IMG/VR virus record: IMGVR_UViG_3300021255_003103
Coordinates: 44,954-108,953 of that record
Direction: 5' to 3' (one strand)
Source: a virus
Taxonomy: Duplodnaviria; Heunggongvirae; Uroviricota; Caudoviricetes
Length of the DNA: 64,000 nt
Part shown: in pieces, positions 33,163 through 58,307 of the stretch
Position numbering within the stretch: position 1 is the stretch's first letter
Layout of the letters: each line of letters opens with the position of its first letter
The notes under the pieces: generated by a model
Seen by the model: only the letters and a program-made list of their open reading frames with translations
What the model was told of the DNA's origin: nothing
Database searches by the model: none
Translations under genes and position numbers: made by a program

Positions 33163-34146
33163 ATGGAATTAAATGACGAATATATAATTAAATTATGTTT
33201 TCAAAAAAATTGTGGTCGATTAATTAGAAATTTTAGTTTTGATAAATTAGATAATAATGTTAAAGATTACATAATAAATAGATATAACGATTCATTATCA
33301 ATTGAAGAAACACTAAAAAGAATATATTATAAAATTGAATTTCATCCAAAATGTCCTATATGTGGAAAATTAGTATCTTGGGGTAAATGCGGAAATAATA
33401 AATTTTTTCATAATACATGCAGTTTAAAATGCGCTGGAAAATTAAGTTTGCAAACAATTAAAAAAAAATATGGTTATAGTAATCCAATGGATTTTCCAAA
33501 CGCAAAACAAAATTTAGAAAATACATGTTTAAAAAAATATGGAGTTAAACATGTATTACAAAATAAAGATATAAAGAAAAAACAAGAGCAAACATGTATT
33601 AAAAGATTTGGTACAAATAATATTTTTTCATCCGAAATTGGAAAACAAAAAATAAAAGAATCATTAATAAAACATTTTGGTGTAGATCATCAAATGAAAT
33701 CTCAAGAAATAAAAAATAAATTTAATTGGAAACAATCAGTAGAAAAACAAATTGAAACAAAAAGAAAAAATAATTCTTTTCATATTTCAAAACCAGAGGA
33801 AGAATCTTATATATTATTAAATAATAAATTTAATGATGTAAAAAGACAATACAAATCAAAAAGTTATCCTTATTGTTGTGATTTTTATATTCCAAGTTTA
33901 GACCTATATATTGAATGTAATTATCATTGGACACATGGCGGTCATCCATATAATGAAAACGACATTAATGATATAAATAAAGTAAAAGAATTAAAATCTA
34001 AAAATAAAAAATTTTATAATAATGTTATAATAACATGGACAGTAAGAGATGTTAATAAAAGAAACATAGCCAAAGAAAATAATTTAAATTATTTAGAATT
34101 TTGGAGCATTAATGAATTAAAAAAATGGATAAATATATATAAATAA
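33163..34146 (+). CDS. Zn-ribbon + repeat + Vsr/DUF559-like (PD-(D/E)XK) endonuclease-domain protein; paralog of the N-terminal part of 48997..50763(-)
   Basis: CPICGK...C..C zinc ribbon; tandem (K)KYG(V/Y)-containing ~27-aa repeats; C-terminal CDFYIPSLDLYIECNYHWTHGGHPYNEN ... NVIITWTVRDV fits the DUF559 pattern (DF...l.iE.dG..H ... w.v.R). About 330 aa are strongly similar to the other copy. Confidence 0.5.
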   Translation: MELNDEYIIKLCFQKNCGRLIRNFSFDKLDNNVKDYIINRYNDSLSIEETLKRIYYKIEFHPKCPICGKLVSWGKCGNNKFFHNTCSLKCAGKLSLQTIKKKYGYSNPMDFPNAKQNLENTCLKKYGVKHVLQNKDIKKKQEQTCIKRFGTNNIFSSEIGKQKIKESLIKHFGVDHQMKSQEIKNKFNWKQSVEKQIETKRKNNSFHISKPEEESYILLNNKFNDVKRQYKSKSYPYCCDFYIPSLDLYIECNYHWTHGGHPYNENDINDINKVKELKSKNKKFYNNVIITWTVRDVNKRNIAKENNLNYLEFWSINELKKWINIYK

Positions 34147-40300: not shown

Positions 40301-43300
40301 ACAATTGCCAACTGGCGATACTCAAGCTTTAGATAATGATGATAATAAAGTTTGGGATAACGAACATGTTTTAAGAATTGAAGGTTTGACAATTAATACA
40401 CCATTTTCTTCATTTATGTCAAATACTGATAGTGCAGGTGTTTCATTTGATGCTGTATATAATATTGTAGATAAATCAGGCAATGTTACAGATACTATTT
40501 ATAGATGGGAACAAGACTTTGAATTAATTTATCCAGATCCTGACGATATAGTAGGTAAGATTGATAATGTTACAATGAAAGATACGACTAAGTTTGGTTA
40601 TGATTCTAAATTTAAACGTACATGTCAGCCTTGGGTGGATTTCTTTAATTGGGTTACATCAACATATCAAAATCAAGAAAAATTCGAACAAGAAGCTTCA
40701 CAGCATTTTGATATTTATAAGATGGCTGCATATTATATTATGTTCTTAAGATTTGGTCTTGTTGACTCTGTTGAACGTAATGCGCAATGGAAAACATATG
40801 ATGGTAAACACTGGCATTGTGAATCTTGGGATATGGATATTGCTCTTGGTAATATGAACACTGGTGGTATTGCATTTGATCCACCTATTGATCGTAATTC
40901 TACATTTAAAACAGATACCACTACATATGCATATTCTGGTAAGACAACATCAACGTCTAATTGGATATGGGATGCATTTGAAAACTGGACTTATTGGAGT
41001 AAAGAAGTAGTACCAGCAGTAGCACAAGCTTTATATGAAGCTGGATTAACATATAATAACATTTCTAAAATGTTTGATGAAGAATACCAAGATAAATGGT
41101 GTGAAATTCTTTATAATGAATCAATGTCTTTTAAATATATTAAATCAAGAGGTAATAGTGATCAATGGTTAGCATGGTTACAAGGAGCTCGTACATCACA
41201 CAGACACTGGTGGTTAAGTACATCAATGAATTTCTGGGATTCAAAATGGACATGTGGTGATTATAAAAACCACAAAGTAACAATATTTGCAAACCATAAT
41301 AAGAGTACTTCAGGTAAAGAATATATTATTTGTAAGACAAATGGTTCAACGTATTTGTCAATGGTAAGAGAATCTACTACAATTGATTCTCAATACGCAA
41401 CGTTATCATCTCCAGCAAATTTTGATATTACTGATGTTGAAATGTCTAACAAGGTACAATTCCATATATATGGTGCAACATATATTGAAGAATTCGATGG
41501 TAGTGCATTTGCCAATGGTATAAGTACAATTACATTTGCTGGTGCATATGATGATGTATTAGGCGCTCCTTTAAAGAAAGTTAATTTAGGATGCCCTTAT
41601 GAAACATTAGCAACTGGTGAAATGATAGGTACATTTAATGGTATTTTAACAGGTATTACATTCTCAGATAGTTTTGGTAATGATGCTGCAAAGGGCTTAC
41701 AAGAATTAAATGTAACTGGTCAAATTAATTATGGAAGTAATTTATTAGTTCCTGAAATTGAAAAATTAAATAAAACAGAATTAAAGAATTTCTATGGAAA
41801 GGGTTCTGGTATAACATCATTCCATTCATCTCTTTCAGGTAATGCATTTGTCAATATTGAATTACCTGGTCATTTACGTATGTCTGATGGATCAAAAGAC
41901 ATAGGATTTACTGAATTAGTAATGACAAACTCTACATGGGAAAATCTTACATGGTATGATTCAGTTGTTGATTCTCATTATGAAACAATGACATATCTAG
42001 ATGAAAATGGAGTTGAAAAAGAAAAACAAGTACCAGTTGGAACAATTTCTTATGAACGTACATGTGTAGAAAAAGGTGATAGACATAATATACCATTTAC
42101 ATTAACAATTGTTAGATTTATTGGTTCTACAGGTAAGACTGAAAAATCAATGCGATTTGTATTAGATTGGATTAAATCAATTGAAGCATATTTGAGAAAT
42201 GCTATGAACAATGGAGCAATTGCACCAGGTGTAGGTGATTATGCTGAATGTGAAACTTTTGACGATATGTTAAAACATGAACTTAACCGTAGAACATTAG
42301 AAATTGATAATATTAAATGGGATCATACAACTATTAAAGATAATGAATTAATTACATATAAGCAATTACAATATATATCAATGTTTAATGATGGAAGAAA
42401 TAATGCAGATAATAATACACCATTATTAAAAGGATATATTGAAGTAAGTATGGATGATGGTGAACTATCTGTAGAACAATTGACTCAATTAAAAGAATGG
42501 TTTGGTAATCAGATATTTAGTATTAAATCAATTGGTGTTGGTTTAGTTATTGACCAGTCATTAAATTATATTAAAATTAATGTTGGTAATGCAAATGTTG
42601 AAACAAACCCAGATACTGGTGAACTTGAAATTTCAATTGAAGAAGGAAGCAGAGCAACATTATCTGCTACTAGATTCCAATTACAAGAAAACGATACTAC
42701 AACATATTGGGGAATTAAAGCACCTGGTTCAGCTGCTAATGCAGGTACTAGTTGGCAAGGATGTACGATAACAACTGGTAAAGATAAGTTAACATATTTG
42801 GATGTAGCAGAAACAGTATATGGAGATCGTACAATTGAAGTTACATGTTCTATGGTTGGTGAAGAATTATCGTCATCAGTATTAATACATATTAAAGCAG
42901 TTTCATATCCTGCAAGTATAAAATTAGCAGTGGATCAATCACGTAATGGAAGTAATGAAATGAATAGATTACGTGATTTTGCTGGTGCATATGTATATTG
43001 GAAAGGTGGATTAGTGGCAGAATTCTATCCTGAAATCAAATGGATAGAAGAATCATTTTCTGGTGATACTGTTGATGAATCTACTATAAGAAAAGCTAAA
43101 ATTGATGATATTATATATACATTGACAAATTCAAATGGTCAGAACATAATTAATCAAGTTTCATACAATACATTCCAAAAGGGTCAAAATTCAACAGGAA
43201 ACGTTAATGATAATTATATTACATATTATAATAATGCTACTCCAGAGCTTAAAGGTATTGTTTTAGGAGTACAAAATTTACCAGATCAAGGATCTGCAGA

Positions 43301-44045
43301 TTATAAATTAACAATAACTATAAGATATGCATCAAATAAAACTGTTATATTAACGACAAATATTATTATAATTGATGATGCTGTTGAAATAGTACAATAT
43401 AATAGTGGTTTATTGTTTGATGCATTAAAAGATCAATATTTAGCATGTAATAATGCAACAATAACACGTTCATTCTATAAATCAGATTTATTATCATTAA
43501 ATGGAACATTATCATTTACAGATTCAAAATATCAACTTTTGACTGATTTAACAACTATAGATCGTAAAAGTATTTTTGAATATTTACCAAATATTGAAGG
43601 TATTGATTTATCTGGATGCACTTCTCTAGACACATCTCCTGATGCGCCACCAACAGATTCTAGTGACGCACGTAGAAATTTTGTTATGAATAAATGCACT
43701 AAGCTTACAACATTTAATGTTACTGGATGTACATCACTCGGTAATGTATATAATACATTATCAAGATTTTATCAGATTGATTTAAGTAAATGCACAGCAA
43801 TTAAAACTGTAAAAGCGTATGGTACAAAAGTAGATATATTACTACCATCTAGTTCAAGCATACAGACATTAGAATTAGGTACGCCAAGACATATTGCATT
43901 AATAAATCAAAATGAATTATTTACTAATAAAGTTTCAGTACAAAATCCAGATAGTTTGGAAAGTGTTGTATTAAATACTGATTCTCAATCAAAAAATGAT
44001 TTATTTAGTACATTTGCACAAATTATATTAAATACAGAACTATGA
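37398..44045 (+). CDS. Giant (2215 aa) structural protein (tail fibre/baseplate candidate)
   Basis: 6.6 kb uninterrupted ATG ORF; Thr/Ser/Asn/Gly-rich; stop overlaps the next start (ATGA). Confidence 0.55.
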   Translation: MALFDERINEYVSWKDGKHYFSGKNVTDNMQPSGRVIRELLQERLRNPIFIPTKESVGTSTFIDDGYWRIFSSKDAYDLWLTDRVAYAELELAKFPKQSEYEFQLTGFENNARYVIEGSGNQANAELNYTWDIFKGQNPVNDSIIVTYTITNTNTRKTQSFTNMFTNAQKNVSINLYEYLGEGQNVVNINLQGINTSVSAGQTIFITMLQFKIEAEWNYSAYHKQGDPLMILNYRVLRNDTNAEVTVFGTIDNNDTVITDTFGKGFSDIQKTNIAIPNNNRWVSSSDGNPVKHNLQMWAQTSYNGTLFTSNILYYEFEFASEESLINHFINLSTSISSEDKSSIPVINPTLIATQYISTKISYGYYTDSASLDASISVNWKLIKENSTDEQIIGTYDISKNTTSVLEFIPIIATEAKKSVYLVATYGSGVDEEELLKILISITPNTGFMEQSGYVLKLNAYGKQNNDNVEQTWEYGSSSNKIITRFEGIDWTDNKGWYNNSFRTFGTDSYAEIQYAPLVDISQGKTIEIDFESEKVSNLNDVLILIGNKNGARIEITPNSATLYNAANVNVIETNFKANERLHLCFIFNKTETNSDKSDLIFITNNGILERAVSGLGSTFTSNGNIKIGGSRSGVRVYSIRVYDFALSYTNAYNNYLFDSEDKIAIKTKNAVINESTNIIDYDLCRNKIDTILIKGDLSNLLKATTDKDQSTTDVEILRVCPYDSNYNFTCTGGMIRKHGQSTLNYPVPSMKIWFNKSKSGATPVFQCSGQESEGYAKNRYRMKANSIPSNKFVLQANYSDSSGVHNGSLQRLINETWYNAKINGEYKLRTIPQLFTSNQKITRNNSNLYDQLDTNSNLTLGTNTDGKQWKDYTNNQFPYIYSDSNNKMHNGLQIGPDSFPCVVFYEDTSSSGNTTFLGLYVFMEDKKADFIYGERSIYYYDNGSGHTLADDPFVLKTENTKKGKYAIQLPTGDTQALDNDDNKVWDNEHVLRIEGLTINTPFSSFMSNTDSAGVSFDAVYNIVDKSGNVTDTIYRWEQDFELIYPDPDDIVGKIDNVTMKDTTKFGYDSKFKRTCQPWVDFFNWVTSTYQNQEKFEQEASQHFDIYKMAAYYIMFLRFGLVDSVERNAQWKTYDGKHWHCESWDMDIALGNMNTGGIAFDPPIDRNSTFKTDTTTYAYSGKTTSTSNWIWDAFENWTYWSKEVVPAVAQALYEAGLTYNNISKMFDEEYQDKWCEILYNESMSFKYIKSRGNSDQWLAWLQGARTSHRHWWLSTSMNFWDSKWTCGDYKNHKVTIFANHNKSTSGKEYIICKTNGSTYLSMVRESTTIDSQYATLSSPANFDITDVEMSNKVQFHIYGATYIEEFDGSAFANGISTITFAGAYDDVLGAPLKKVNLGCPYETLATGEMIGTFNGILTGITFSDSFGNDAAKGLQELNVTGQINYGSNLLVPEIEKLNKTELKNFYGKGSGITSFHSSLSGNAFVNIELPGHLRMSDGSKDIGFTELVMTNSTWENLTWYDSVVDSHYETMTYLDENGVEKEKQVPVGTISYERTCVEKGDRHNIPFTLTIVRFIGSTGKTEKSMRFVLDWIKSIEAYLRNAMNNGAIAPGVGDYAECETFDDMLKHELNRRTLEIDNIKWDHTTIKDNELITYKQLQYISMFNDGRNNADNNTPLLKGYIEVSMDDGELSVEQLTQLKEWFGNQIFSIKSIGVGLVIDQSLNYIKINVGNANVETNPDTGELEISIEEGSRATLSATRFQLQENDTTTYWGIKAPGSAANAGTSWQGCTITTGKDKLTYLDVAETVYGDRTIEVTCSMVGEELSSSVLIHIKAVSYPASIKLAVDQSRNGSNEMNRLRDFAGAYVYWKGGLVAEFYPEIKWIEESFSGDTVDESTIRKAKIDDIIYTLTNSNGQNIINQVSYNTFQKGQNSTGNVNDNYITYYNNATPELKGIVLGVQNLPDQGSADYKLTITIRYASNKTVILTTNIIIIDDAVEIVQYNSGLLFDALKDQYLACNNATITRSFYKSDLLSLNGTLSFTDSKYQLLTDLTTIDRKSIFEYLPNIEGIDLSGCTSLDTSPDAPPTDSSDARRNFVMNKCTKLTTFNVTGCTSLGNVYNTLSRFYQIDLSKCTAIKTVKAYGTKVDILLPSSSSIQTLELGTPRHIALINQNELFTNKVSVQNPDSLESVVLNTDSQSKNDLFSTFAQIILNTEL

Positions 44046-45277: not shown

Positions 45278-47014
45278 ATGACAAATAAACGTTGCTTGGT
45301 TTATGAGACTTTAGGAAGCGTTTCAAATCTTCAAGTGTCAGAAGCTAAAGGCGATGGTTTAATGCGTTTGCAAGGTGTATTTGGTGTTTGCGGTGTAAAG
45401 AATCAAAATAATCGTGTATATGACAAAGATAATTATGCACAGATGGTTGAATCTTTACAAAAAAAGATTAAAGAATCTGGTTGTCCAGGAGAATTGGAAC
45501 ATCCTAATTCAATGAACATAAATCTTGAAAATGTATCTCACAAAATTGAAGATATTCAGATGAATGAAGATGGTACAATTACAGGTTCAATTGTTCTTTT
45601 AAATACTCCTAAAGGTCAAATTGCAAAAGCTATCGTTGAAGGCGGTCTTCCACTTTTTATTTCGTCACGTGGTGCTGGTACAATTACTAATGAAGGTCGT
45701 GTAACATTATCTACAATACAGACATATGATTTAGTAGGTACTCCAGGATTTAGTCAAGCTAAGCTCACATTATCAAATAATCAAAAACTTGAATGTTTGA
45801 ATGAAGGTCTAGAAGATAATAATGAAACTTGGGTTATTGTTGAAGGTGATGATCTTTTAGGAGATGAAGATAATAAAGATGATAATAAAGATCCTAAAGA
45901 TAATAAAGATTCAAAAACCAATAAAGATAATGATCCAAAAAATGGTGACAAACCTAAAGATGACGATAACAAAAATAATGACGATAAAGACATCAATATG
46001 AAAGAACTTAAAGAAGCTATTGATAAGCTTACTGAGAAAGTAACATCTCTCGAAGCTGAACTTCATGTAGCTCAAGAATCTTTAAACGAAACACAAAATG
46101 AAGTAAAGTCATTTAAGCCAACAAATTATGACGGTATTCAAAAGTGGGTTGTTGAACAATTTGCTCCAGAGTTCCAAAAAAAAATCAATGAAAGCTTAAA
46201 TACTTTAATAAGTGAAAAGTTTAATGATGATTCTTCAGAAGATATGCAAGAATCTATTAAATCTTGGGTTGTTGAAGAATTTGCTCCATTAGTACAAGGT
46301 TGGATTACTGAAGAATTTTCACCAGAAATTCAAAATTGGATTACTGAAGAATACTCACCAGAAATTCAAAAATGGATTGTTGAAGAATACTCACCAGAAA
46401 TTCAAAAATGGATTGTTGAAGAATACTCACCAGAAATTCAAGGTTGGATTACTGAAGAATACTCACCAGAAATTCAAAATTGGATTACTGAAGAATACTC
46501 ACCAGAAATTCAAGGTTGGATTACTGAAGAATTTGCTCCTACCGTTGAAAATTGGTTAATGGAAGAATATACTCCTGAACAATCATTAATTATTGAAAAG
46601 AAAGTAAATGAAAATGTATCTGCATTTATGGAATCACAAAAAGCAGGTCGTCTTGATGAAATTGACGGTTTACTTGAATCTATTGCTGCTGAAGGAAACA
46701 ATGATGTTCAAAAAATTGTTAAAGAGCAACAAGAGGAAAATAAGTATAAAGGAATATATGTAGTAGAAAATATGCCAGCTGAATATCTTCCATCTTGGAA
46801 TATGCTTAATGAAGCTGCACAACAATTAATTATTAGAAGTTCAAAAATGTATGACTTTACTAAAGAAGGCGTACTTGAATCATTCTGGGCTAATGTAGAT
46901 TTTGGTAAGAATGCTGAAGAAACAAAGCCAGTTGTAGAATCAAAGAATCCTATTCAAAATTATCAAAATAATATTATAGCTAACATGAAGAGACTTCGTG
47001 GTTTGAACTACTAA
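45278..47014 (+). CDS. Prohead protease (T4 gp21-like) fused to an acidic repeat-containing scaffold-like C-terminal region
   Basis: The N-terminal ~180 aa (LQGVFGVCGVKNQNNRVYDKDNY...GELEHP...SSRGAGT) aligns with T4 gp21 (GIFMQAEVVNRNKRLYPKRIL...). Downstream is a poly-acidic KD/ND-rich linker, a coiled-coil segment, and 7-8 tandem 14-aa repeats WI(T/V)EE(Y/F)SPEIQ(N/K/G). Confidence 0.6.
   Translation: MTNKRCLVYETLGSVSNLQVSEAKGDGLMRLQGVFGVCGVKNQNNRVYDKDNYAQMVESLQKKIKESGCPGELEHPNSMNINLENVSHKIEDIQMNEDGTITGSIVLLNTPKGQIAKAIVEGGLPLFISSRGAGTITNEGRVTLSTIQTYDLVGTPGFSQAKLTLSNNQKLECLNEGLEDNNETWVIVEGDDLLGDEDNKDDNKDPKDNKDSKTNKDNDPKNGDKPKDDDNKNNDDKDINMKELKEAIDKLTEKVTSLEAELHVAQESLNETQNEVKSFKPTNYDGIQKWVVEQFAPEFQKKINESLNTLISEKFNDDSSEDMQESIKSWVVEEFAPLVQGWITEEFSPEIQNWITEEYSPEIQKWIVEEYSPEIQKWIVEEYSPEIQGWITEEYSPEIQNWITEEYSPEIQGWITEEFAPTVENWLMEEYTPEQSLIIEKKVNENVSAFMESQKAGRLDEIDGLLESIAAEGNNDVQKIVKEQQEENKYKGIYVVENMPAEYLPSWNMLNEAAQQLIIRSSKMYDFTKEGVLESFWANVDFGKNAEETKPVVESKNPIQNYQNNIIANMKRLRGLNY
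46262..46586 (+). repeat. 42-nt (14-codon) in-frame tandem repeats (x7-8) inside the protease/scaffold gene
   Basis: The repeated peptide WITEEYSPEIQNW is visible in the translation; the same stretch yields a repetitive alternative-frame artefact ORF (46377..46559). Confidence 0.8.
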
Positions 47015-47112
47015 ATTTACTTAAATTTTCAATAGGATAAGAAAATTTTTATTTTTATATAAATTAAAATTCTCAATAGAGAAATAACAAATAAATTTTG
47101 ATTATAAATAAT

Positions 47113-48882
47113 ATGTTTAATGAACAAAATGGCGCAGTTACATGGGAAAAAATGTTGAAGGAAAACTTTAACGTTAATGACCAGGAAAAACTTAACTGGG
47201 TTTCTCAATATGCTGCAATTCATGAAATTCATGAATCACAATTAGGTATTAATACTGGTAATGTAGTTCCATCTACAGCTCATCCAGGTGTTAGCCCTAT
47301 TTATGCAACTCCAATGAATACTCTTGGCATTGGTAATCCAACAGCTCCTAGCCAATTAGATCCAATGAGTACAGCACCTTATAATGCTGCTAATCCAACA
47401 GGTTCATTCTGGGGTCAAACTCCAGGTTCAGGTGATATTCCAGTATCAACACTTCCAATGGCTCTTAACATTGCATTGTTAACTATTGGTCTTGAACTTG
47501 TTCCAGTTATTCCTTCTAAAGGTCCTTGGGCTATGTTAACATATATGGACTTCCCATATGCTGGTGGTAAGCTCGGTCGTGTAAACGAAACATCATTTGA
47601 TGGTAAGGGTGAAGGTAATGAAAACAAGCCTATCTACATTAAGATTAAAGGTCTTACACTTACTCAAATTGCTGGTATTCGTGGAGCAATGGAAGCTGGT
47701 GATGTAAAAGCTGATTCTGTTGTTGAAGTTGGTGGTTTCAAAGGTAAGTTTATCATGCTTGGTCGTATGGATGCTTGCCCACTTGTTAAAGTTGTAGAAT
47801 GCTCTGCTGCTAATAAATCAATTCGTGAAGAATTTGGTGCTGCTACAACAGTTAAGATTGGTACTCACACAATTACATTAGAAGCTGCTTCTGAAGGTAA
47901 GGCTGCACAAGCTGTTGAAGCTGATTTCGTTCAAACTTCAGTTGATTTAGTTGATGGTTTTGCTAACTTCTTTGATGGTAGTAAGAATCCTATGACACGT
48001 GCTCAAAACGAAACTGGTACAGGTAATGTAATTGGTCTTCGTTTATTCAGCAAGTGGATCCAAATGGGTTCATACGAAGTAACTGGTACTGTTACACGTC
48101 AACAACTTCAAGATCTTCCTCTTTATGGTGTTGACGCAGTATCTAAAGTTATGGAAGCTCTCCAAAACGAAATTACACAACACATCAACCAACGTATTCT
48201 TGAAAGAGTATTTGCACTTGGTGTTACTAACGCTGTACAGCAAAAGGCTCGTCAAGGTGTAGATCTTAACCTTTATATGGGTAACGGTGGCGCTGATATT
48301 CCATTTGCTACTGCATTCCCAGGTGTTCCACACTTCACAGATATCTATGGACATGATCATAAAGCTGATTGGGGTAACGTAAAGAATGCTGAAGTTAATA
48401 CTTCTGCTGAAAATCTTGCAACACGTCAACGTCGTATTATGTCTAAGTTACTTGCTGCTGCTAACTTAATCCAATTAGTAGGTCGTCGTGGTCGTCCAAC
48501 ATGGGTTGTAACAAACGGACAAGTTGCTACTGCACTTCAAGATGTTTCAGGTTATGTTGTAGCTCCAATGCTTAACACAATGTCTCAAGCTAATACACAA
48601 AACTTATACCATGCAGGTACAGTTGCTGGTCTTCAAATCTATGTTGATCCATATATGGACTGGAATGATACACGTATCTGTATTGGCCGTAAGGGTGATG
48701 GTAATTCACCAGGTGTTATCTTTATGCCTTATATCCTTGCTGATACAGTTTCTATTACTGCAGAAGGTACAATGGCTCCAAAGATGCTTGTTAACTCAAG
48801 ATATACTATTGCAGAAGCTGGCTTCTATCCAGAACTCCAATATCTCACAATCGCAGTTGGTTCAGCATTTGGAATTATCTAA
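47113..48882 (+). CDS. Major capsid protein, T4 gp23-like
   Basis: Blockwise similarity to T4 gp23: ALNIALLTIGLELVPVIPSKGPWAML vs AIPNLIAFDICGVQPMNSPTGQVFAL; PTWVVTNGQVATALQDVSG vs GNFIIASRNVVNVLASVDTG; LQIYVDPYMDWNDTRICIGRKG vs YRVYIDQYAKQDYFTVGYKG. ORF-track start 47098 is TTG; ATG is at 47113. Gene order protease-scaffold then MCP is as in T4. Confidence 0.7.
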   Translation: MFNEQNGAVTWEKMLKENFNVNDQEKLNWVSQYAAIHEIHESQLGINTGNVVPSTAHPGVSPIYATPMNTLGIGNPTAPSQLDPMSTAPYNAANPTGSFWGQTPGSGDIPVSTLPMALNIALLTIGLELVPVIPSKGPWAMLTYMDFPYAGGKLGRVNETSFDGKGEGNENKPIYIKIKGLTLTQIAGIRGAMEAGDVKADSVVEVGGFKGKFIMLGRMDACPLVKVVECSAANKSIREEFGAATTVKIGTHTITLEAASEGKAAQAVEADFVQTSVDLVDGFANFFDGSKNPMTRAQNETGTGNVIGLRLFSKWIQMGSYEVTGTVTRQQLQDLPLYGVDAVSKVMEALQNEITQHINQRILERVFALGVTNAVQQKARQGVDLNLYMGNGGADIPFATAFPGVPHFTDIYGHDHKADWGNVKNAEVNTSAENLATRQRRIMSKLLAAANLIQLVGRRGRPTWVVTNGQVATALQDVSGYVVAPMLNTMSQANTQNLYHAGTVAGLQIYVDPYMDWNDTRICIGRKGDGNSPGVIFMPYILADTVSITAEGTMAPKMLVNSRYTIAEAGFYPELQYLTIAVGSAFGII

Positions 48883-48941: not shown

Positions 48942-48972
48942 TTAGGAGTAGCATATGCTACTCCTTTTTTAT
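48942..48972 (+). terminator. Intrinsic terminator (aggagtagcat-atgctactcct + TTTTTTATT)
   Basis: Perfect 11-bp palindrome plus T6; the stem resembles the 6123/6226 terminators. Confidence 0.85.
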
Positions 48973-48996
48973 TAATTAATATATTTTTATCATAAT

Positions 48997-50763
48997 TCAT
49001 TTTTTAAATATATATAAATATTCTTTATTATTATGTATAGTTCCACATGCTAGATGTTTTGATTTTTTATTATTAATTTCAAATGATTCAAAGCATTTTT
49101 CTTTATATTTATAATCTAATAAATCTTCTCTTATAACTAAACCAAATATCTTACAAGAATCTTTATAATAAAATACATTAAATAAATTATCTATAAAATT
49201 ATTATATTCTTCTTTATTTTCAAAACTTTTACATTCATATTCTTCAATATTATAATATGGGGGGCATGTAAATATTGCATCAAAGTCAATATTAGGAATA
49301 AAATTATTTGCATCATTATTATAAAATTGAACATTATTAAGATTTAAATCTTTAGAAATTCGTTTTACATTTTTATAAATATTTGGTGATAAATCATTAT
49401 ATATATACAATTCTAAATTTGTACTTCCTAATAATCTGTGTCCCCATCCACCGCATGGATCATAGCATTTTTTTATATTATATTTATTAATAAAATATTT
49501 AAATATAAGCGGATTAAAATGAGAATAACCATAATACATACCAGAATGTTTAAACCCTAAAAGTAAATCATTATTTGTTAATTTTTCTATTTGCTTATTT
49601 AAATATTTACATCTATTTGATATTAGACGTTCTTTTATATTATTATCTTGTATTAATTCATTTTCTTTTTTAAAAAATACATCTTGTTGATAATATTTTA
49701 CAATAAAATTATATGATGTTGAACCATTTAAGTTACCTTTCTTATTCTTATAATAATTATATTCATTTAATATTTTATCCCAATCAAAATAAATATATAG
49801 TGGTAAATTAATCCAATTATATAATTCATCATATGAATAAAATACAAGATAATTTAATTGATTTTCTTTTGCTGTATTTCTTTTATTTACATCTCTTATT
49901 GTCCAAGTATTAATTGCGTTGTTATAAAATTTAGTATTTTTTTCTTTCCATTTATTTAATTTATTTATATCATCTTTATTGTTTTCATTATAAGGATGAC
50001 CACCATGAGTCCAATGATAATTACATTCAATATATAAATCTAAACTTAGTATATAAAAATCACAAACAAAAGGATATTCTTTAGATTTATATTGAGCTGT
50101 AACATCTGGGTATTTTTCTTTCAATAATTTATATGATTCATTTTCAGGTTTAGACTTATTAAATGAATTATTTTTTTTCTTCGTATTGTAAGATTTTTCC
50201 TTAAATTCAATTGAATTAAAAAATAATATTGATTTATTAATAAATGCATTATATTGATCAATATTATTTTTTATTGTGTTCCATCTTTTAGAAATATTAT
50301 TTGATGATTTGTATTTATTGCATTTTGTTTTATTTTGACGTTCTAAAATTTCTTTACGTTGTGCTTGTTCCTCTACACCATATTTAAGTAAATTAGTTTG
50401 CTTTCTTTTATTAATATTATTATTAGATCCGTATTTGTCTATTTTTGTATTACATTGTTTATTATATACTTCTTTATCTTTTTGCTCACAAGATATTGAA
50501 CAATATGTATTATAACATGTATTTTCTTTATATCCAAGATTAAAATTAGTTAATTTTCCACATATTGGACATACTGGTCTAACTTGTATATCAAATAATA
50601 TGCGATATATTGATTCTTTAATATTGTTAGAATCATTAAATCTTAATAATAAATAGTTTCGTAAATTTTCAAATTTCTTGTTTCTAATTAATCTATTATA
50701 GTTTGATAAATTTAATCTATTATCATTAATAAATAAATTAATTATACAATTATCATAATCCAT
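48997..50763 (-). CDS. Vsr/DUF559-like endonuclease domain fused to an amino-(N6A/N4C) DNA methyltransferase; antisense insertion between the capsid and sheath genes
   Basis: The N-terminal ~330 aa are paralogous to 33163..34146 (Zn ribbon; CDFYILSLDLYIECNYHWTHGGHPYNEN; NAINTWTIRDV). The C-terminal half has MTase motif I DPCGGWGHRL and motif IV FTCPPY. It is the only long minus-strand gene in an otherwise plus-strand structural module. Confidence 0.6.
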   Translation of the reverse strand: MDYDNCIINLFINDNRLNLSNYNRLIRNKKFENLRNYLLLRFNDSNNIKESIYRILFDIQVRPVCPICGKLTNFNLGYKENTCYNTYCSISCEQKDKEVYNKQCNTKIDKYGSNNNINKRKQTNLLKYGVEEQAQRKEILERQNKTKCNKYKSSNNISKRWNTIKNNIDQYNAFINKSILFFNSIEFKEKSYNTKKKNNSFNKSKPENESYKLLKEKYPDVTAQYKSKEYPFVCDFYILSLDLYIECNYHWTHGGHPYNENNKDDINKLNKWKEKNTKFYNNAINTWTIRDVNKRNTAKENQLNYLVFYSYDELYNWINLPLYIYFDWDKILNEYNYYKNKKGNLNGSTSYNFIVKYYQQDVFFKKENELIQDNNIKERLISNRCKYLNKQIEKLTNNDLLLGFKHSGMYYGYSHFNPLIFKYFINKYNIKKCYDPCGGWGHRLLGSTNLELYIYNDLSPNIYKNVKRISKDLNLNNVQFYNNDANNFIPNIDFDAIFTCPPYYNIEEYECKSFENKEEYNNFIDNLFNVFYYKDSCKIFGLVIREDLLDYKYKEKCFESFEINNKKSKHLACGTIHNNKEYLYIFKK

Positions 50764-50934
50764 AATAAAACATTTATAGTTAAATATTAAATAGTAAGTT
50801 ATTAAAAATAATTTAATATTTGATTTTCAATTCAGTCTTAATTTTTTTATTTTTATTAAATTGTATCTATTAAGCATCATTTGCTTAAATGTAAATACAA
50901 TAGAATATAATAAATATAAAAAAGATAATATAAT

Positions 50935-53900
50935 ATGGCAATTCCAGTACATTTGCAGCAGTTTAAAGCTGCGGGTATTTACCGTGTAGTTTTTGATCAC
51001 TCAGCAATCTTAAACCAAGATACTCAGATGTTACGTTTAGTTGTTGGATATTCTGAAAAAGGTCCTTTTAATGTGCCTGTACTTGTTAAAGATCCATACG
51101 AGTTCAGATCTATCTTCGGTGATATATCTAAAAGACTTGAAAAACGTGGTATTTATTTCCATCGTTTAGCTTTACAAATGTTACAAGTAAGTCCAATCTT
51201 ATGTCTTAATCTCAAAAAGTTTGATGGTGAAACAGTTCAAGGTGCTACTATTAGCACAGACTTTAATCCAAAGTTTACTCCAATTGACACTGTAACACTT
51301 AATGTTGAAGACATTTACGATACAACTCGTTTCTGGACTCTTGATGCAGAAAAATTAAATGATTTACGTTCAGTTGAAGGTTCATTGTTAGATCAATATA
51401 TCAATATTTCAGCAACTAATGTAAAAGCAACATCTTGTACATATTTTATTCGTAAAGCTTCAGGTACAAAGGTTTCAGGCTATAATATTACAGTTAATGA
51501 CTGGTATTCAGATGAAGAAATGCCAGAATATATGGAACCTTATAAGAATAACTTGATTTCTGACTTCTTTGCAGAAATTTATGTGTTCAAAGGAAAATTT
51601 GAGGCTAAACAAGTTCTTGCTTCAAATACATTAAAAAACTATTTCATTGTTACAAATGAATTAGATGAAGATGGTAACCAAATACTTAAGCTTCGTGATA
51701 AAGTGATTAATGCTTTTGGTGAATCAGTAGATACACTTGATGCATTGTATAAAGATGAAACTTCTGGTGCTTTAGGACACTACATTGGTGCAATCATCCC
51801 ATACTTTAAGAATAAACAAGGTGCATATGCATGTCTTGATGTTGCATTCAATAGCGATATTGATACACATAACATGATGTTATCTTTCAATAAGGATTTA
51901 CTTGAAGAAGAAAATGCTGCTAATCTTGATCTTTCTGGTCGTATCAGAATTCCTTCACCAAAGAATCCTCTTAAAGCAAATAAATCTTTAAGTGTAGATA
52001 AAATATATAATGGTACTGCGTCAACATCTGTATTAGGTAATATAGCTGCTCCAGTTATTGCTGATGTAACTTCATTCTATACTAATGTATGGGATCCAGA
52101 AACAGAAACTCCATTACAAGATGTTTATGTAGGTAAGACACGTATTGCAGGTACTCTTTATGTTAAAGCAATTAAAGAAAATATCGAAGTTGAAGCAGGT
52201 ACAGCAGGTCAAATTGAATTAGCACAAGTTGGTTCAGACCAAACAATTACTATGACATTTAATACTACACAAAATGAATGGAAAGTTCGTGAAGTTGCTC
52301 GTAAGCTTGGTGTTGTATTTGATGAAGAAGGTAATGCTAAAAAAGGTATAGGTACATATTGGCCATCAGGAGATGCATTTATTGATGCAACAGATCCTCT
52401 TCGTGGTCCTCAAAAGGTTATTACTGCTCTTTCTCGTCTTGAGCATAAATCAGCAGATGGAACAGAATATACTGATATTGATGAAAACATTAAGCCTGCA
52501 TTAAAAGAAGTTGAAGTACTTACAAGAATTAAGTATGTTAATACAACTGCAGTTGGTGCTGATGCTGTTTATGGTTCTTCAGTTTCATTTATTGATTTCT
52601 GTGACGATAACTGGGAATATGTTGAAGATGCTGAAATTATTAAGGGTGTAAAACAAGCTGCTCTTATAGGTACAGCTCAATATGATACTTCATTACTTAA
52701 TATTCTCCAAAAGGGTGATTGTCTTCTTGCTGAAGATGGTATGATAGATGAAAACGAAAATGGAGAAGCAGATGATGAAAACGGTTATATTGATAATGTT
52801 AACGTTCAAGAATTTGGCACATTATACTATGAAGAAGGTGAAGAAGATATTCATGAAGAAAAAGATGAAAATGGAGATATAATATTACACCATGCAGGTG
52901 ATTTCAAATTCCATTATATTCTTATTTCTGCTGAACCTTGGTTATATGAAATTCTTGATGAAGAAACTGGTGCAACAATCAATCGTGCTTTAGTTCGTGT
53001 AGATGCTGCTCTTAATCAAGAAATCGGTACAATGGTTCCACAATATCTTCAAGGATATACATATAAGAATGATCGCCCACTTGGAACAGGAATGTATGCA
53101 AAAGTAAAATGGCAAGAATTTATTCTTTCTACAATTACTGATTATAAAGGACTTCGTACTGCATTACTTAATAAATCAGAAATTGATTATCGTTATGTAA
53201 TTGATACATTTGAATCATTCCCAGTATCAAATCTTAAGAATGTTCTTTCATACTTATGTAAAGAAAAGCAATCTGCGTTCTGTATTGCAAACTTCCCATC
53301 AGTTAAGAACTTTATTAAGTGTCCTTATACATCATTTACAGACTCTAAGGGTGTATTTAATGTAGAATATGTTGTTAAAGGTTTCAACAAGAAGAAGTCA
53401 GCTTCAATGATGTTTAGCTTACCATCAGAAAATGACGGTGCTTCATTTATTGCATTCTACACGCCTCTTAAGTTTACTGATGGATATCTTGATACATTAG
53501 TTCCTGCTGCAGGTCTTGTATCTAACTTATTCGTTAACAAGTATATTTCACGTCAACCATATTACATTGTAGCTGGTCCTAACTATGGAGCTATTACTGC
53601 ATCTGGTCTTGTTGGTCCTGATTATAAATACTCAATGGATGAATTACAAATTATTGAACCATTTGGTGTAAATGTTATGGTATATCGTCCAAACTTTGGT
53701 ACATTTATTAATGCTAACCAAACAGCTAAGCAAACTCCAGTTTCAGCTCTTTCTAAAGTTAATGTACGTGAACTTGTTATTTACTTACAAGATGAAATTG
53801 AAAAGGTTCTTCAAGCATATCAATGGGAATTCAATAATCAACGTACACGTAATGCTATACTTGATAGAGCTAATCAAATATGTTCAATAATTGCAGCTAA

Positions 53901-54078
53901 TGGTGGTATTCAAGCTTATAAGAATATTATGGATGAATCTAATAATACACCAGACATTATTGATAATGAAATGGCTGTTATTACAACTCATATTGAACCT
54001 GGCATGGGATGTGGTAAGATGGTACAAGAACTTCATATTTGGAGAACTGGTCAAATGAATGCAAATATTTCAGATTAA
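50935..54078 (+). CDS. Contractile tail sheath protein (1047 aa)
   Basis: The N-terminal region aligns with the T4 gp18 sheath: GYSEKGPFNVPVLVKDPYEFRSIFG vs GKFQWGPAFQIKQVTNEVDLVNTFG; YFHRLALQMLQVSPILCLNL vs YFMSAMNFLQYGNDLRVVRA. A small tube-like gene follows. Confidence 0.7.
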   Translation: MAIPVHLQQFKAAGIYRVVFDHSAILNQDTQMLRLVVGYSEKGPFNVPVLVKDPYEFRSIFGDISKRLEKRGIYFHRLALQMLQVSPILCLNLKKFDGETVQGATISTDFNPKFTPIDTVTLNVEDIYDTTRFWTLDAEKLNDLRSVEGSLLDQYINISATNVKATSCTYFIRKASGTKVSGYNITVNDWYSDEEMPEYMEPYKNNLISDFFAEIYVFKGKFEAKQVLASNTLKNYFIVTNELDEDGNQILKLRDKVINAFGESVDTLDALYKDETSGALGHYIGAIIPYFKNKQGAYACLDVAFNSDIDTHNMMLSFNKDLLEEENAANLDLSGRIRIPSPKNPLKANKSLSVDKIYNGTASTSVLGNIAAPVIADVTSFYTNVWDPETETPLQDVYVGKTRIAGTLYVKAIKENIEVEAGTAGQIELAQVGSDQTITMTFNTTQNEWKVREVARKLGVVFDEEGNAKKGIGTYWPSGDAFIDATDPLRGPQKVITALSRLEHKSADGTEYTDIDENIKPALKEVEVLTRIKYVNTTAVGADAVYGSSVSFIDFCDDNWEYVEDAEIIKGVKQAALIGTAQYDTSLLNILQKGDCLLAEDGMIDENENGEADDENGYIDNVNVQEFGTLYYEEGEEDIHEEKDENGDIILHHAGDFKFHYILISAEPWLYEILDEETGATINRALVRVDAALNQEIGTMVPQYLQGYTYKNDRPLGTGMYAKVKWQEFILSTITDYKGLRTALLNKSEIDYRYVIDTFESFPVSNLKNVLSYLCKEKQSAFCIANFPSVKNFIKCPYTSFTDSKGVFNVEYVVKGFNKKKSASMMFSLPSENDGASFIAFYTPLKFTDGYLDTLVPAAGLVSNLFVNKYISRQPYYIVAGPNYGAITASGLVGPDYKYSMDELQIIEPFGVNVMVYRPNFGTFINANQTAKQTPVSALSKVNVRELVIYLQDEIEKVLQAYQWEFNNQRTRNAILDRANQICSIIAANGGIQAYKNIMDESNNTPDIIDNEMAVITTHIEPGMGCGKMVQELHIWRTGQMNANISD

Positions 54079-54120: not shown

Positions 54121-54165
54121 TAAAGAAGAAACGTTTTAAAAAATATATATTCATGAATATAGTTT

Positions 54166-54750
54166 ATGCCTAATAATTTAACACACTTACCTCATATATT
54201 GAATGTTGAATCAGGTCGTATGAAATATGATCCAGTGCACAAATCAATATTTGAAGTATATTTTACATTGCCAGCAGCTATTCAGAGTCAGTTCAAAACA
54301 GAAGAATTATTACTTACAGAACAAGTAACAAATGTAGCAGGTCTTGATGTACTTCAAAAGACTACTGATGTTGGAGAACAAAAGTTTTATGGAGTTACTG
54401 TTTCTTATTTGAATCCTGTTCTTGATACAACTGCTGCAGATATTACAATTACATTTAACCTTAACTTACGTAATGTAACAGATAACTTTGTATTGAAAGT
54501 ATTCCGTGCTTGGGAAAATATTTCATATAATCTTGCAGATGGTACACGTTCAATTAAAACAGGTTATATTACAGATAACTTACGTATAGCTGAAGCAACT
54601 CGTAATGGTGATATCTGGAGATCATATATCTTCCATCACGTAATGCTTAGAAGTGTTACTAATATTGACGATTTGGACATTAATGCTAATGACGCACGTC
54701 AATTACAATGTCAATTCCGTTGCGATTATTGGGAAGATGAATTATCATAA
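54166..54750 (+). CDS. Tail tube protein (194 aa), inferred
   Basis: Position immediately downstream of the sheath gene and its size, as for T4 gp19; no strong motif. Confidence 0.5.
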   Translation: MPNNLTHLPHILNVESGRMKYDPVHKSIFEVYFTLPAAIQSQFKTEELLLTEQVTNVAGLDVLQKTTDVGEQKFYGVTVSYLNPVLDTTAADITITFNLNLRNVTDNFVLKVFRAWENISYNLADGTRSIKTGYITDNLRIAEATRNGDIWRSYIFHHVMLRSVTNIDDLDINANDARQLQCQFRCDYWEDELS

Positions 54751-56208: not shown

Positions 56209-57474
56209 ACACAACGCTAAAGACGTTGTATCTTCCTGCTCAGCAAATTTACTTATAAATTTATTATAAGAAATTTTTACAGGCCCTTTTATACTTGTAT
56301 GATTAGTTCCTAACCTATCAAGTTTATCATATATAAGATAGAAATATATCATGTTATTTGCTGCATGTATGTCTCTATCTTCTTTTGTTTTACATTTAGG
56401 ACATTCAAATATTCTATCTTTTAATTCTAATTCAACTTTAGATCCACATTTATTACAATATTTTGTCGTTGGAAACCATTTGTCTAGTATAACTGTTCTA
56501 TCGCACATACTTAATTTGTACTTTATTCTACCTAATATAGAATGCTGTATTTTAGATCCACTCATTCCATCTTGTCTCCATTCACTTATTTGCTCATCTT
56601 GTATTACTATTGTTTTATTATCATTTAAAATTGAATGAACTATTTTATTTGATATGTCATTTTTCTTGTTATTTATATGGATATACTCTTTTCTGATTTT
56701 CTTAATAGTCTTATATCTGTTGTTTGAGCCTTTTATTTGTTTACTAAGCTTAGCTTGTAATCTTTTAAGTTTCTCACTTTCTTCAATAGATATGTCATAT
56801 TTGATGCCATCAGATAAAGTCAAACTTGTAGACACACCCATATCTATGCCTACTATGTTATTTTTATATTGTTTATTTTTATCTTTATTTATATAACAAG
56901 TTAAACTAATATAATAATCATTTCCATCATATAATAGTTTTGCATTTGCATAATCTATGTTATCGTATTTGTTTAATTGCTTAATCCCGTTAACACGAAT
57001 AAGTTTTTTTATTCCTTGTATTTTAAACTTATTTCCTCTTATGCTATGCGTATTATTATATTGTTTTAATTCAATACAATTAAATTCTGATTTATATTTT
57101 AATTTGCCAACATCATATCCTTTTTTCTTTAATGCAGATAAACCTTTTATTTGGTTTACAATTTGTTTTATTATTCCTTGTTTTAATGCTGAACTAATAT
57201 AAGATATATTTACTTGTATATCATTTCCATACTTATCTTTATGCGTTATTGTGTTTAAATCTTTATAGTCAAAATTAAATACATCTTTATCTAAAAGATA
57301 ATTATATATCCACTTAGCCTCAACAAACTGCATTTTTATCTGTTCGTTTTGCTGTTTAGATAAACTAGATTTATCAACTTTAAACTTAAAGCACTTGCAT
57401 ATCTGAGACTTACGTTTATCATAAGTCTCTCTCATAGTCTGTGCTATATGTTTATTTTTTTCTAATCTATCCAT
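56206..57474 (-). CDS. tnpB: TnpB (IS605 OrfB-family RNA-guided nuclease-like; RuvC-like + Zn ribbon)
   Basis: C-terminal CNKCGSKVE...CPKCKTKEDRDIHAANNM (Zn ribbon plus RuvC-III DxxAAxN) and the central GIDMGVS (RuvC-I). Divergent from tnpA. Confidence 0.75.
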   Translation of the reverse strand: MDRLEKNKHIAQTMRETYDKRKSQICKCFKFKVDKSSLSKQQNEQIKMQFVEAKWIYNYLLDKDVFNFDYKDLNTITHKDKYGNDIQVNISYISSALKQGIIKQIVNQIKGLSALKKKGYDVGKLKYKSEFNCIELKQYNNTHSIRGNKFKIQGIKKLIRVNGIKQLNKYDNIDYANAKLLYDGNDYYISLTCYINKDKNKQYKNNIVGIDMGVSTSLTLSDGIKYDISIEESEKLKRLQAKLSKQIKGSNNRYKTIKKIRKEYIHINNKKNDISNKIVHSILNDNKTIVIQDEQISEWRQDGMSGSKIQHSILGRIKYKLSMCDRTVILDKWFPTTKYCNKCGSKVELELKDRIFECPKCKTKEDRDIHAANNMIYFYLIYDKLDRLGTNHTSIKGPVKISYNKFISKFAEQEDTTSLALC

Positions 57475-57531
57475 TTAATTAATAATAAAATATTATTTTT
57501 AATAAAGTACAAATAATTTTATTTTTTTACT

Positions 57532-58306: not shown

Positions 58307-58307
58307 A

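Follow-up and report, generated by a model that had tools for sequence, protein, structure and literature searches.

Why should a gene for an endonuclease fused to a methyltransferase lie antisense between the capsid and sheath genes of a phage? A preliminary description of this locus, made from the letters of the DNA, had placed such a gene there, reading its location as typical of a homing-type mobile gene, and had noted a stand-alone paralog at 33163..34146. To address this question, we analyzed the window, i.e., the whole 64,000-nucleotide stretch of phage DNA. Both open reading frames were found where they had been placed, and the fusion was confirmed to lie between the (+)-strand genes for the major capsid protein and the tail sheath, with the prohead protease gene located upstream of the capsid gene. 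Overall, our results supported the earlier interpretation.

The fusion gene and its nuclease half

The fusion gene starts with an ATG at 50763 and ends with a TGA at 48997-48999 (Table 1). TAG recoding, which occurs in Lak phages, was considered and found irrelevant, as the frame contains no internal stop and terminates in TGA. Homologs number 899, and many of these cover the full length of the protein. Comparison with a copy that is 94.7% identical (L114) gave a dN/dS of 0.18 for the whole gene, 0.20 for the nuclease and 0.15 for the methylase; both halves are under purifying selection. Direct searches of Pfam, NCBIfam, PDB sequences and PADLOC with the fusion returned no significant match, and its domains were therefore assigned from family profiles and structure models. 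Scans of the 64-kb window for tRNAs and for Rfam families, group I introns among them, found none.

Table 1. Features of the fusion gene, its paralog and their surroundings (window coordinates).
Feature	Position	Strand	Details and basis
Paralog, 327 aa	33163..34146	+	Zinc ribbon, four 23-aa KYG repeats, Vsr-like nuclease; without methylase
Major capsid protein gene	47098..48882	+	PHROGs; candidate carrier of the homing target
Capsid-gene terminator hairpin and T-run	48944..48965	+	Left edge of the insertion lies just past the hairpin
Inserted segment, ~1.85 kb	48972..50822		DNA alignments with empty-site relatives L001 and L002
Homing endonuclease-methyltransferase fusion (candidate), complete CDS, 588 aa	48997..50763	-	ORF, homologs, dN/dS
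SAM-dependent amino-methyltransferase domain (predicted), aa 322-588	49000..49800	-	Helical N-subdomain, then Rossmann core
Motif IV, CPPY	49255..49266	-	C500, P501, P502, Y503 invariant; Cys replaces the usual D/N/S
Motif I, DPCGGWG (SAM binding)	49441..49461	-	D435, G439, W440, G441 invariant
Vsr-like / putative EDxHD-type PD-(D/E)XK core, aa 198-321	49801..50172	-	S204, E207, D235, E246, N248, H253, D265, W287, D291, K294
Degenerate KYG helical repeats, DUF7487-type, aa 96-197	50173..50478	-	Period 17-23 aa; repeat analysis and AF2
4-Cys zinc ribbon, aa 61-95, CPICGK...CSISC	50479..50583	-	Cys conservation; short strands in AF2 model
N-terminal helical region, aa 1-60	50584..50763	-	AF2 helices H3-56; conserved in the family
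Tail sheath gene, right flank of the insertion site	50935..54078	+	PHROGs

The long homologous stretch that the two genes had been said to share was recovered by BLASTP (48% identity, 317 aa, E=9e-77). Within it, the cysteines of the CPICGK zinc ribbon are well conserved among 68 homologs (C65, C68 and C88 at least 90%, C92 invariant). The tandem KYG repeats described earlier are also present, but their period proved to be 23 aa rather than ~27 aa. In the fusion, they presumably form a DNA-binding array. Pfam DUF7487 matches the paralog (1e-14; 55.5 bits, cut-off 27) and 48 of the 68 homologs of the fusion, and the repeats of the fusion itself are too degenerate to score. A search of its N-terminus for NUMOD or HTH modules found no match.

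The core common to both proteins, CDFYI...IECNYHWTHGGHP...TWTIRDVNKR, had been read as a Vsr-type PD-(D/E)XK nuclease, and the Vsr-like fold found for the catalytic domain agrees with this. In the family alignment, no variation occurs at S204, E207, D235, H253, W287, D291 and K294, and conservation at E246 and D265 is 90% or higher. The D-13-N-5-H arrangement resembles D196-N208-H213 of I-Bth0305I (PMC3239194) in its spacing. These residues may form the composite E-D-x-H-D motif, to which Vsr D51, H64, H69 and D97 correspond, but it is N or Q, not D, that follows the E.

Occupancy of the insertion sites among related phages

Alignment with two empty-site relatives (L001 and L002) showed that the insert stands in place of about 41-45 bp of their spacer. 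In the closest relatives, whose capsid proteins are 93-95% identical, this position is an unoccupied spacer of 250 bp. Altogether, the site is empty in seven relatives (L001, whose capsid is 95% identical, L002, L003, L004, L006, L007 and L009) and occupied in six, in either orientation and by different family members: nuclease-only copies in L005, L008, L012, L013 and L016, and a fusion in reversed orientation in L011. The paralog is likewise inserted directly behind a terminator hairpin, at a site that is polymorphic and is empty in L018, L019, L022 and L023. Clean boundaries and presence or absence among relatives at both loci uphold the view of a free-standing homing-type mobile gene, and the comparison with related phages that had been suggested as a check yielded empty alleles at both. 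In Lak megaphages, 5-9 copies are found per genome.

The identity profile against L001 and L002 was flat at about 90% and revealed no co-conversion tract near the insert, these relatives being too diverged. A cluster of synonymous changes at the 3' end of the capsid gene (AGC CGT to TCA AGA) was considered as a resistant target allele and rejected for lack of a match with element presence; the cluster is present in the empty L006, L007 and L009 and absent from the occupied L011. A scan for sigma-70 promoters found fewer sites than in shuffled sequence and is uninformative in this AT-rich phage.

A methyltransferase domain with cysteine in motif IV

The C-terminal 267 aa of the fusion adopt a class I SAM methyltransferase fold in the predicted structure (pLDDT 93). 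It is a Rossmann fold in which motif I is rich in glycine, motifs II and III are acidic and strand 4 leads into a PPY loop. The two motifs reported before, DPCGGWG and TCPPY (Cys codon at 49264-49266), are both present and invariant in the family, and the motif IV cysteine was found in 139 of the 150 best cluster representatives. To our knowledge, CPPY is not a described catalytic motif and cysteine is no known catalytic variant in motif IV, which makes the activity and chemistry of this methylase uncertain. The helical N-subdomain (~100 aa) carries invariant Q359, N383, R384, K405, Y413 and S414. About 85 aa after motif IV finish the Rossmann core; a target recognition domain (TRD) and an NPPY motif are absent.

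The nearest solved structures are RNA N2-guanine and N6-adenine methyltransferases (tRNA/rRNA m2G and m6A) and HemK, not DNA enzymes. Neither the window protein nor its homologs reached the gathering score of PF01555 in Pfam; only a phage protein with a TSPPY motif, WBF82186, passed as PF01555 N6_N4_Mtase (8.9e-16), and the methylase domain was linked to it by profile comparison (hhalign 98.4%). The fusion has motif I at aa 435-441 and motif IV at aa 500-503, the reverse of the order IV...I in PF01555. We infer that the domain is an active-looking DNA amino-methyltransferase, a permuted relative of the N6/N4 DNA methylases, whose substrate would be DNA. Its SPPY relatives are stand-alone genes, none of which has a capsid gene nearby.

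Association of CPPY methylases with homing nucleases

The CPPY domain was found in about 180-345 clusters, all metagenomic and unannotated, and in none of 50,697 records of isolate phages. At every locus with readable flanks except one (L077), it is fused to or adjoins a homing nuclease, which may be Vsr-like, HNH or LAGLIDADG, and the two "methylase-only" representatives that were checked are both adjoined by a family nuclease gene. Pairing of the CPPY methylase with homing nucleases is, thus, near-obligate. In the methylase tree, the nuclease is swapped and the methylase constant. The methylase is fused in most members, in both domain orders, and tandem copies of the units occur. When the two are split, the methylase protein bears a duplicate of the nuclease's N-terminal DNA-binding module, including the helical region (59% identity, E=2e-36 in L076; 36%, E=1e-23 in L042); the split pair L063 shares no such module. 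A stand-alone CPPY methylase in L115 lies in a row with N6_N4_Mtase and Eco57I-like DNA methylase genes.

The units are located 3' of conserved genes, mostly capsid and also sheath, NrdD and DNA polymerase genes. Among the 41 non-redundant family units, 30 directly adjoin a capsid gene and a 31st is connected to one through two further family genes. The ideas that the methylase permanently accompanies the capsid gene or modifies capsid protein were rejected, since units also abut the other three genes and the whole unit is missing from the closest relatives.

Homing with methylation-based self-immunity and its alternatives

We tentatively favor, as somewhat short of probable, the hypothesis that the fusion is a free-standing homing endonuclease that makes its own carrier immune by methylation, in which both the methylated site and the immunity role of the methylase are inferred. 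In a huge AT-rich phage, the gene would have entered the gap that separates the terminator of the capsid gene from the promoter region of the sheath gene. Its product would bind DNA by the helical N-terminus, the zinc ribbon and the KYG repeats and cut it with the Vsr-like (EDxHD-type) core. Because the methylase would mark the endonuclease's own recognition site via the common DNA-binding module, the carrier genome would be packaged methylated and, as replication passes by way of hemimethylated intermediates, would keep its immunity. On mixed infection, the unmethylated, element-free genome would be cut and then repaired by copying the element. Restriction-modification logic would in this way serve homing, and a target in or near a conserved gene, where sequence is unchangeable, could be used without a resistant allele.

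Several points weigh against self-immunity. The methylase appears dispensable for insertion and survival at this site, because nuclease-only relatives occupy the very same one. In a mixed infection, it would also modify the element-free genome, so that homing efficiency would hinge on kinetics. The split pair without a shared module, the motif IV cysteine, the RNA methyltransferases as closest structures and the undetectable co-conversion tract count against it as well. A broader claim, that these widespread phage cassettes are a natural link between homing and restriction-modification, in which a CPPY methylase sharing the nuclease's DNA-binding module marks the carrier as self and the nuclease part is freely swappable, is possible and held with less confidence. 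It is less likely that the invariant cysteine performs chemistry beyond simple N-methylation.

Of the alternatives, an unlikely one is that the methylase belongs to a homing endonuclease as a base-flipping domain that reads or anchors DNA, or as a SAM-sensing regulatory domain, and confers no immunity. SAM modulates cutting in some Type IIG and Type III enzymes, and homing endonucleases often exchange DNA-binding modules with one another; fusion in most members in both orders and a helical N-subdomain with invariant residues that could read DNA are consistent with such a role. However, the catalytic and SAM-binding motifs are all invariant, and the methylase is not simply a targeting domain for the nuclease, because in split versions it is a separate protein with its own DNA-binding module. 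Nuclease-only relatives, moreover, get to the same site without it.

Rather less likely still, the methylase could be beneficial cargo, e.g., a shield of the phage DNA against host restriction or other defences, that a homing endonuclease merely spreads between phages. Its constancy across nuclease swaps, the L115 gene beside two other DNA methylases and the stand-alone SPPY genes away from capsid genes would fit this, as orphan methylases are common in phages. Yet a useful methylase should outlive loss of the nuclease, which is fused or adjacent everywhere readable except L077, and the closest relatives of the window phage do without it. Repeated fusion and duplication of the DNA-binding module onto the methylase also point to site-directed rather than genome-wide action.

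A single-chain, Type IIG-like weapon that destroys the DNA of hosts or competitor phages rather than copying itself is improbable: no TRD follows the methylase, the nuclease is of Vsr type, no PADLOC defence model matched, and the units always abut conserved genes in variable orientation, with tandem copies and patchy occurrence, which is a signature of homing. Finally, a C-terminal domain that acts on RNA or protein, or is catalytically dead, is highly improbable in spite of its structural neighbours and undescribed motif, given its profile link to a PF01555-positive phage protein, its coupling to DNA nucleases and DNA-binding modules, its invariant SAM-binding residues and the methylase dN/dS.

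Significance

As selfish nuclease elements, homing endonucleases are kept apart from restriction-modification systems, and the carrier of a homing element is thought to be protected solely by disruption or mutation of the target. If self-immunity is correct, one methylase module combined with three unrelated homing nuclease folds would represent a third form of carrier protection, an epigenetic immunity, and perfectly conserved sequences in or beside essential genes (capsid, sheath, NrdD, DNA polymerase) could be attacked without a resistant allele. This would explain how the elements can adjoin genes of unchangeable sequence. Since the family is unannotated and metagenome-only, it may hold methylases of new specificity, may supply tools in the form of long-target nucleases that come with their matching protective methylase, and may provide markers of recombination between huge phages.

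Comparison with known systems

In the literature, whose coverage here was incomplete, so that absence is weak evidence, we found no precedent for DUF7487, for a homing endonuclease with a methyltransferase or for methylation-based protection, and no description of a natural homing element with a dedicated methylase. The EDxHD or Vsr-like homing endonucleases, represented by I-Bth0305I (PDB 3r3p) and the phage Hef-type enzymes (PMC3239194), have the Vsr-like nuclease fold in common with the window protein; as a group, they make site-specific double-strand cuts with 2-nt 5' overhangs in the allele that lacks the element. In contrast to them, the window gene is free-standing, borne by neither intron nor intein; it has a zinc ribbon and 23-aa DUF7487 repeats where they have the NUMOD and HTH modules of homing endonucleases (PMC3239194); its core has Asn (or Gln) at the position of the motif's Asp; and it adds a conserved W-x3-D-x2-K helix and the methyltransferase fusion.

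In its genomic setting, the gene is like SegF, SegG and MobE, the free-standing (intronless) homing endonucleases of T4-type phages (reviewed in PMC2993671), which also lie between conserved genes, are unevenly distributed even in close relatives, occur in multiple copies per genome and have their presumed target in the neighbouring conserved gene. However, those enzymes are GIY-YIG or HNH nucleases with no modification activity, and their carriers escape via target polymorphisms. Type IIG/IIC enzymes (MmeI, BpuSI, DrdV) similarly combine a PD-(D/E)XK-superfamily nuclease and an amino-methyltransferase in one chain and tell self from non-self by methylation, but in them the N-terminal nuclease precedes an NPPY methylase of the gamma class, a TRD ends the chain, and the genes form bacterial defence loci, whereas the window gene is a patchy insertion within a phage structural module and has a small CPPY domain, with no TRD behind it, and a Vsr-type nuclease with its own DNA-binding array. 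With the beta-class PF01555 methylases, of which TTHA0409 (2zie) is matched weakly, the domain shares the glycine loop of motif I, the xPPY form of motif IV and, beyond the latter, a conserved Y...EY segment; it differs in its circularly permuted order, I then IV, and in having Cys for Asp/Ser in motif IV. A parallel in logic is the artificial EcoRI homing cassette (Eddy & Gold 1992, ref 64 in PMC2993671), an engineered construct in which a restriction nuclease is reported to drive homing of its own gene and the carrier to be protected by methylation, as we propose for the fusion.

The fusion gene in its genomic context

PHROGs assigned the neighbouring genes to a prohead protease, a major capsid protein, a tail sheath and a tube-like protein (see table); the 588-aa nuclease-methylase fusion, on the minus strand, therefore lies antisense within the late structural module, as the preliminary description had held. 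The window has a G+C content of 26.9%, and its capsid protein shares 37% identity with the one from uncultured phage LR756500 and 31% with those of Lak phages. No near-identical DNA was found among 50,697 phage records. The phage is distantly related to the huge Bacteroidota-type phages.

Features of the window and methylase motifs of the fusion protein
Feature	Position	Strand	Details
Paralog ORF	33163..34146	plus	327 aa
Prohead protease	45278-47014		PHROGs
Major capsid protein	47098-48882		PHROGs
Capsid terminator hairpin	48944-48965		with T-run; inside homology shared with L001, L002
Fusion ORF	48997..50763	minus	588 aa; ATG at 50763, TGA stop
Tail sheath	50935-54078		PHROGs
Tube-like protein	54163-54750		PHROGs
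Motif I	D435-P-C-G-G439-W-G441-H		invariant residues, homolog alignment
Motif II	Y455-N-D457		invariant residues, homolog alignment
Motif III	D484		at least 90% of sequences, homolog alignment
Motif IV	C500-P-P-Y503, then N505-x-E507		invariant residues, homolog alignment

Several other features of the window were recorded. Midway through the protease-like gene (phrog_207), a 36-nt unit repeated 6.5 times (46300-46532; 92% match) encodes tandem WI(T/V)EE(Y/F)SPEIQx peptides, and this part is 65-69% identical to the related locus L001, versus ~90% elsewhere. A 27-nt tandem repeat (29019-29114; 3.5 copies, 95% match) falls inside an ORF-poor stretch at 27062-29120; further stretches with no ORF of at least 150 aa lie at 6119-7340, 8011-9882 and 57474-59358, and searches of the ORF-poor stretches for tRNAs and Rfam families gave no hit. 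TAG is rare as a stop (2 of 41 long ORFs), two ORFs are very large from stop to stop (37395-44045, 2217 codons; 852-6119, 1756 codons), and the central region of a 696-aa protein (30957-33047) is long and rich in Ala, Glu and Lys.

The capsid-sheath spacer is empty or occupied in related phages

Sixteen IMG/VR loci were fetched via the capsid protein, and the window proteins were mapped onto them. The results bore out the check for empty sites that had been proposed earlier: the capsid-sheath spacer was empty (200-270 bp) in seven loci (L001, L002, L003, L004, L006, L007 and L009) and occupied in six. L001 encodes capsid and sheath proteins 95% and 96% identical to those of the window. Five of the occupied spacers contained nuclease-only family members in either orientation (L005, with two copies, L008, L012, L013 and L016), and that of L011 contained a full fusion, on the opposite strand relative to the window, whose two halves share only 34% and 52% identity with the window protein. 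DNA alignments showed that homology to L001 and L002 ends at ~48972 and restarts at ~50823, with ~1.85 kb in the window in place of ~41-45 bp. Because one spacer has been occupied repeatedly and independently, in both orientations and by diverged members, the pattern favours acquisition through a mobile element over ancestral gene loss.

A short contig (L114) carries a 94.7%-identical copy of the fusion at the same location. The dN/dS between the two copies was 0.18 overall, 0.20 in the nuclease half and 0.15 in the methylase half, and purifying selection therefore acts on both halves.

The stand-alone paralog is likewise inserted directly after a terminator hairpin. Its site was empty in L018, L019, L022 and L023 and held unrelated ORFs in L017, L020 and L021; the spacer is therefore a general cargo hot spot, beyond the nuclease family. 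At sites equivalent to window 33048-34149, L017:4432-5865 contains ORFs of 270 aa and 167 aa, and L020:5017-5877 an ORF of 286 aa.

Compared with the window's sheath gene, that of four loci is longer by a 0.7-1.1 kb segment at about residue 635 (L011:12545-13254, L012:13170-13894, L013:13071-14140 and L016:13102-13826). These segments may represent an additional domain, intein or intron; probes for the nuclease family did not match them.

Family members occupy the addresses of homing endonuclease genes

Clustering at 80% identity yielded 41 non-redundant units. Twenty-five have a Gp23-like capsid gene no more than ~2 kb away, the intervening space being the nuclease gene, and one (L043) lies 5.5 kb from a capsid gene with two further family genes between. 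Five come after capsid genes from other families, four after a tail sheath gene and one after NrdD; one adjoins a DNA polymerase fragment, two others have neighbours without an assignment, and the remaining two are at contig edges. Such a pattern of addresses is classical for free-standing homing endonuclease genes (PMC2993671). Lak megaphages carry 5-9 nuclease-only copies per genome. Tandem family genes were seen beside the capsid gene, two in L029:7995-11595 (also in L035) and three in L043:3618-9093, and a further 588-aa member lies between sheath and protease genes in L030:124-1896.

The nuclease half is shared with the paralog

The common N-terminal part noticed earlier in the two ORFs was confirmed: they share 48% identity across 317 aa (E=9e-77), and the similarity stops at about residue 320 of the fusion. 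A search of 5.8 billion proteins returned 899 homologs of the fusion, none of which has a name; many are full-length, with 35-60% identity. In an alignment of 68 homologs, cysteines C65, C68, C88 and C92 are conserved, S204, E207, D235, H253, W287, D291 and K294 are invariant, and E246 and D265 are at least 90% conserved. The pattern of this half, S-x-x-E ... D-F ... E-x-N-x4-H ... D, resembles the DUF559/Vsr consensus. AlphaFold modelled residues 1-321 from 73 sequences (pLDDT 91) as helices, a small beta zinc ribbon, a helical repeat run and an alpha/beta core. The paralog was assigned to two PHROGs families, both annotated 'homing endonuclease'. KYG repeats are present as previously described, with a measured period of 23 aa rather than ~27 aa; the paralog has four clean copies and the fusion degenerate ones. 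Pfam DUF7487, of which a literature search found no mention, was matched by the paralog repeats and by 48 of the 68 homologs.

The methylase half is related to beta-class enzymes

The model of residues 322-588 (pLDDT 93) shows a ~100-aa helical subdomain followed by a Rossmann core, and the invariant residues of this half fit classical methylase motifs I-IV. No Pfam or NCBIfam methylase model matched the window protein. The sole isolate-phage relatives of this half come from Twort-like Mammaliicoccus and Staphylococcus phages; they are 329 aa long and have TSPPY at motif IV. These proteins reach the threshold of Pfam N6_N4_Mtase ('DNA methylase', 8.9e-16) over two segments, the profile's motif I part preceding its motif IV part, and the window-family profile matched the TSPPY protein with 98.4% probability (E=5e-15). 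Given the permuted match and the profile link, the C-terminal (CPPY) domain is best described as a circularly permuted relative of the beta-class N6-adenine/N4-cytosine DNA methylases, with Cys replacing Ser/Asp in motif IV. Motifs I (DPCGGWG) and IV (CPPY) of the preliminary description stood. Among the best 150 cluster representatives, the motif IV residue is Cys in 139 and Ser in 3.

The CPPY domain is almost always paired with a nuclease

In a library of 1.84 billion representatives, the CPPY domain matched 182, 345 and 1034 clusters at E<=1e-30, E<=1e-10 and E<=1e-3, respectively; homologs in public collections are either unnamed or labelled 'hypothetical protein'. The four full-length homologs that were inspected in other phages all lie directly beside a Gp23-type capsid gene, at its 3' end, and one of them (P0066) has the reversed order methylase-zinc ribbon/repeats-nuclease. 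Scanning IMG/VR with methylase-domain patterns gave 79 loci, which were annotated with custom HMMs for the capsid, Vsr-like core, zinc ribbon/repeats, HNH module and methylase domain. Wherever flanks were readable, CPPY-type matches had a nuclease gene fused or directly preceding, except in L077. The nuclease was mostly Vsr-like. In a large clade it was an HNH enzyme, either fused (L048, L082, P0187, P0228) or encoded by a separate upstream ORF (L049, L052, L057-L071, L076, L083 and others), and in L062, P0208, P0210 and P0241 it was of the LAGLIDADG type; Pfam confirmed both assignments. Two 'methylase-only' representatives that were looked up both adjoin a family nuclease gene. No capsid gene was found near the distant TSPPY relatives (L091-L113). 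In a crude neighbour-joining tree of methylase domains, the HNH-linked clade is nested among Vsr-linked domains with the LAGLIDADG-linked one nearby, so the methylase has stayed constant and the nuclease has been swapped.

In L077:1289-7054, the sole CPPY gene without a detectable nuclease among loci with readable flanks sits between a 904-aa ORF and a 342-aa fragment matching the C-terminal part of DNA polymerases; it may be an element that interrupts a polymerase gene. In L115:884-5934, a stand-alone CPPY methylase (P0121) stands in a row with a PF01555 methylase, a 277-aa ORF and an Eco57I-like methylase; a family nuclease gene comes immediately afterwards, with DNA polymerase B next. In L063:4076-5783 and ~20 similar loci (L049, L052, L057-L071, L083 and others), the stop-to-stop frames of HNH and methylase overlap by 100-130 nt in different frames; L048 and L053 have the fused version.

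A possible role for the methylase in homing

Three observations point to an accessory role of the methylase in homing over independent cargo. First, nuclease-only genes are common whereas the CPPY methylase almost never occurs without a nuclease, which implies that it has little value by itself. Second, where the proteins are separate, the methylase often has its own duplicate of the DNA-binding module found at the nuclease's N-terminus (L076, 59% identity over 115 aa, E=2e-36; L042, 36% over 146 aa with the zinc ribbon included, E=1e-23), with no such match in the L063 pair; enzymes guided by one reader would be expected to target identical DNA sites. Third, the SAM-binding and catalytic motifs are all invariant and under purifying selection.

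We infer, with slightly less than even confidence, that the whole package applies restriction-modification logic to homing. In this model, the simplest one, the carrier genome would be methylated at the endonuclease site, packaged methylated and protected through replication via hemimethylated DNA; in a mixed infection, the unmethylated element-free genome would be cut and then repaired from the carrier. The engineered EcoRI cassette of Eddy and Gold in 1992 is reportedly a precedent for this logic. That cassette is cited in PMC2993671.

A DNA-reading or regulatory role for the methylase domain is unlikely. Beneficial anti-restriction cargo is somewhat less probable again; the stand-alone CPPY gene within the methylase row of L115 favours it, and the three observations weigh against it. 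That the fusion is a non-homing weapon resembling restriction-modification is slightly less likely still, and no defence model matched it. A methylase with a non-DNA substrate, or a dead enzyme, is very improbable.

Comparison with known systems

A literature search of incomplete coverage found no description of a homing endonuclease coupled to a dedicated methylase. The window gene, an ordinary-looking member, leads to a coherent, undescribed family whose proposed mechanism is testable and unusual. In restriction-modification systems orphan methylases are abundant, and the asymmetry between nuclease and methylase in the CPPY family runs the opposite way. The fusion has neither a TRD nor NPPY and is therefore not a Type IIG enzyme. 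The CPPY domain falls outside PF01555 by profile, motif order and motif IV, yet is related to it. Finally, the nuclease forms a new branch, free-standing, within the Vsr-like/EDxHD kind: it shares the fold of these homing endonucleases but appears to match their literal motif only in part, and in place of NUMOD/HTH it has another DNA-binding array.
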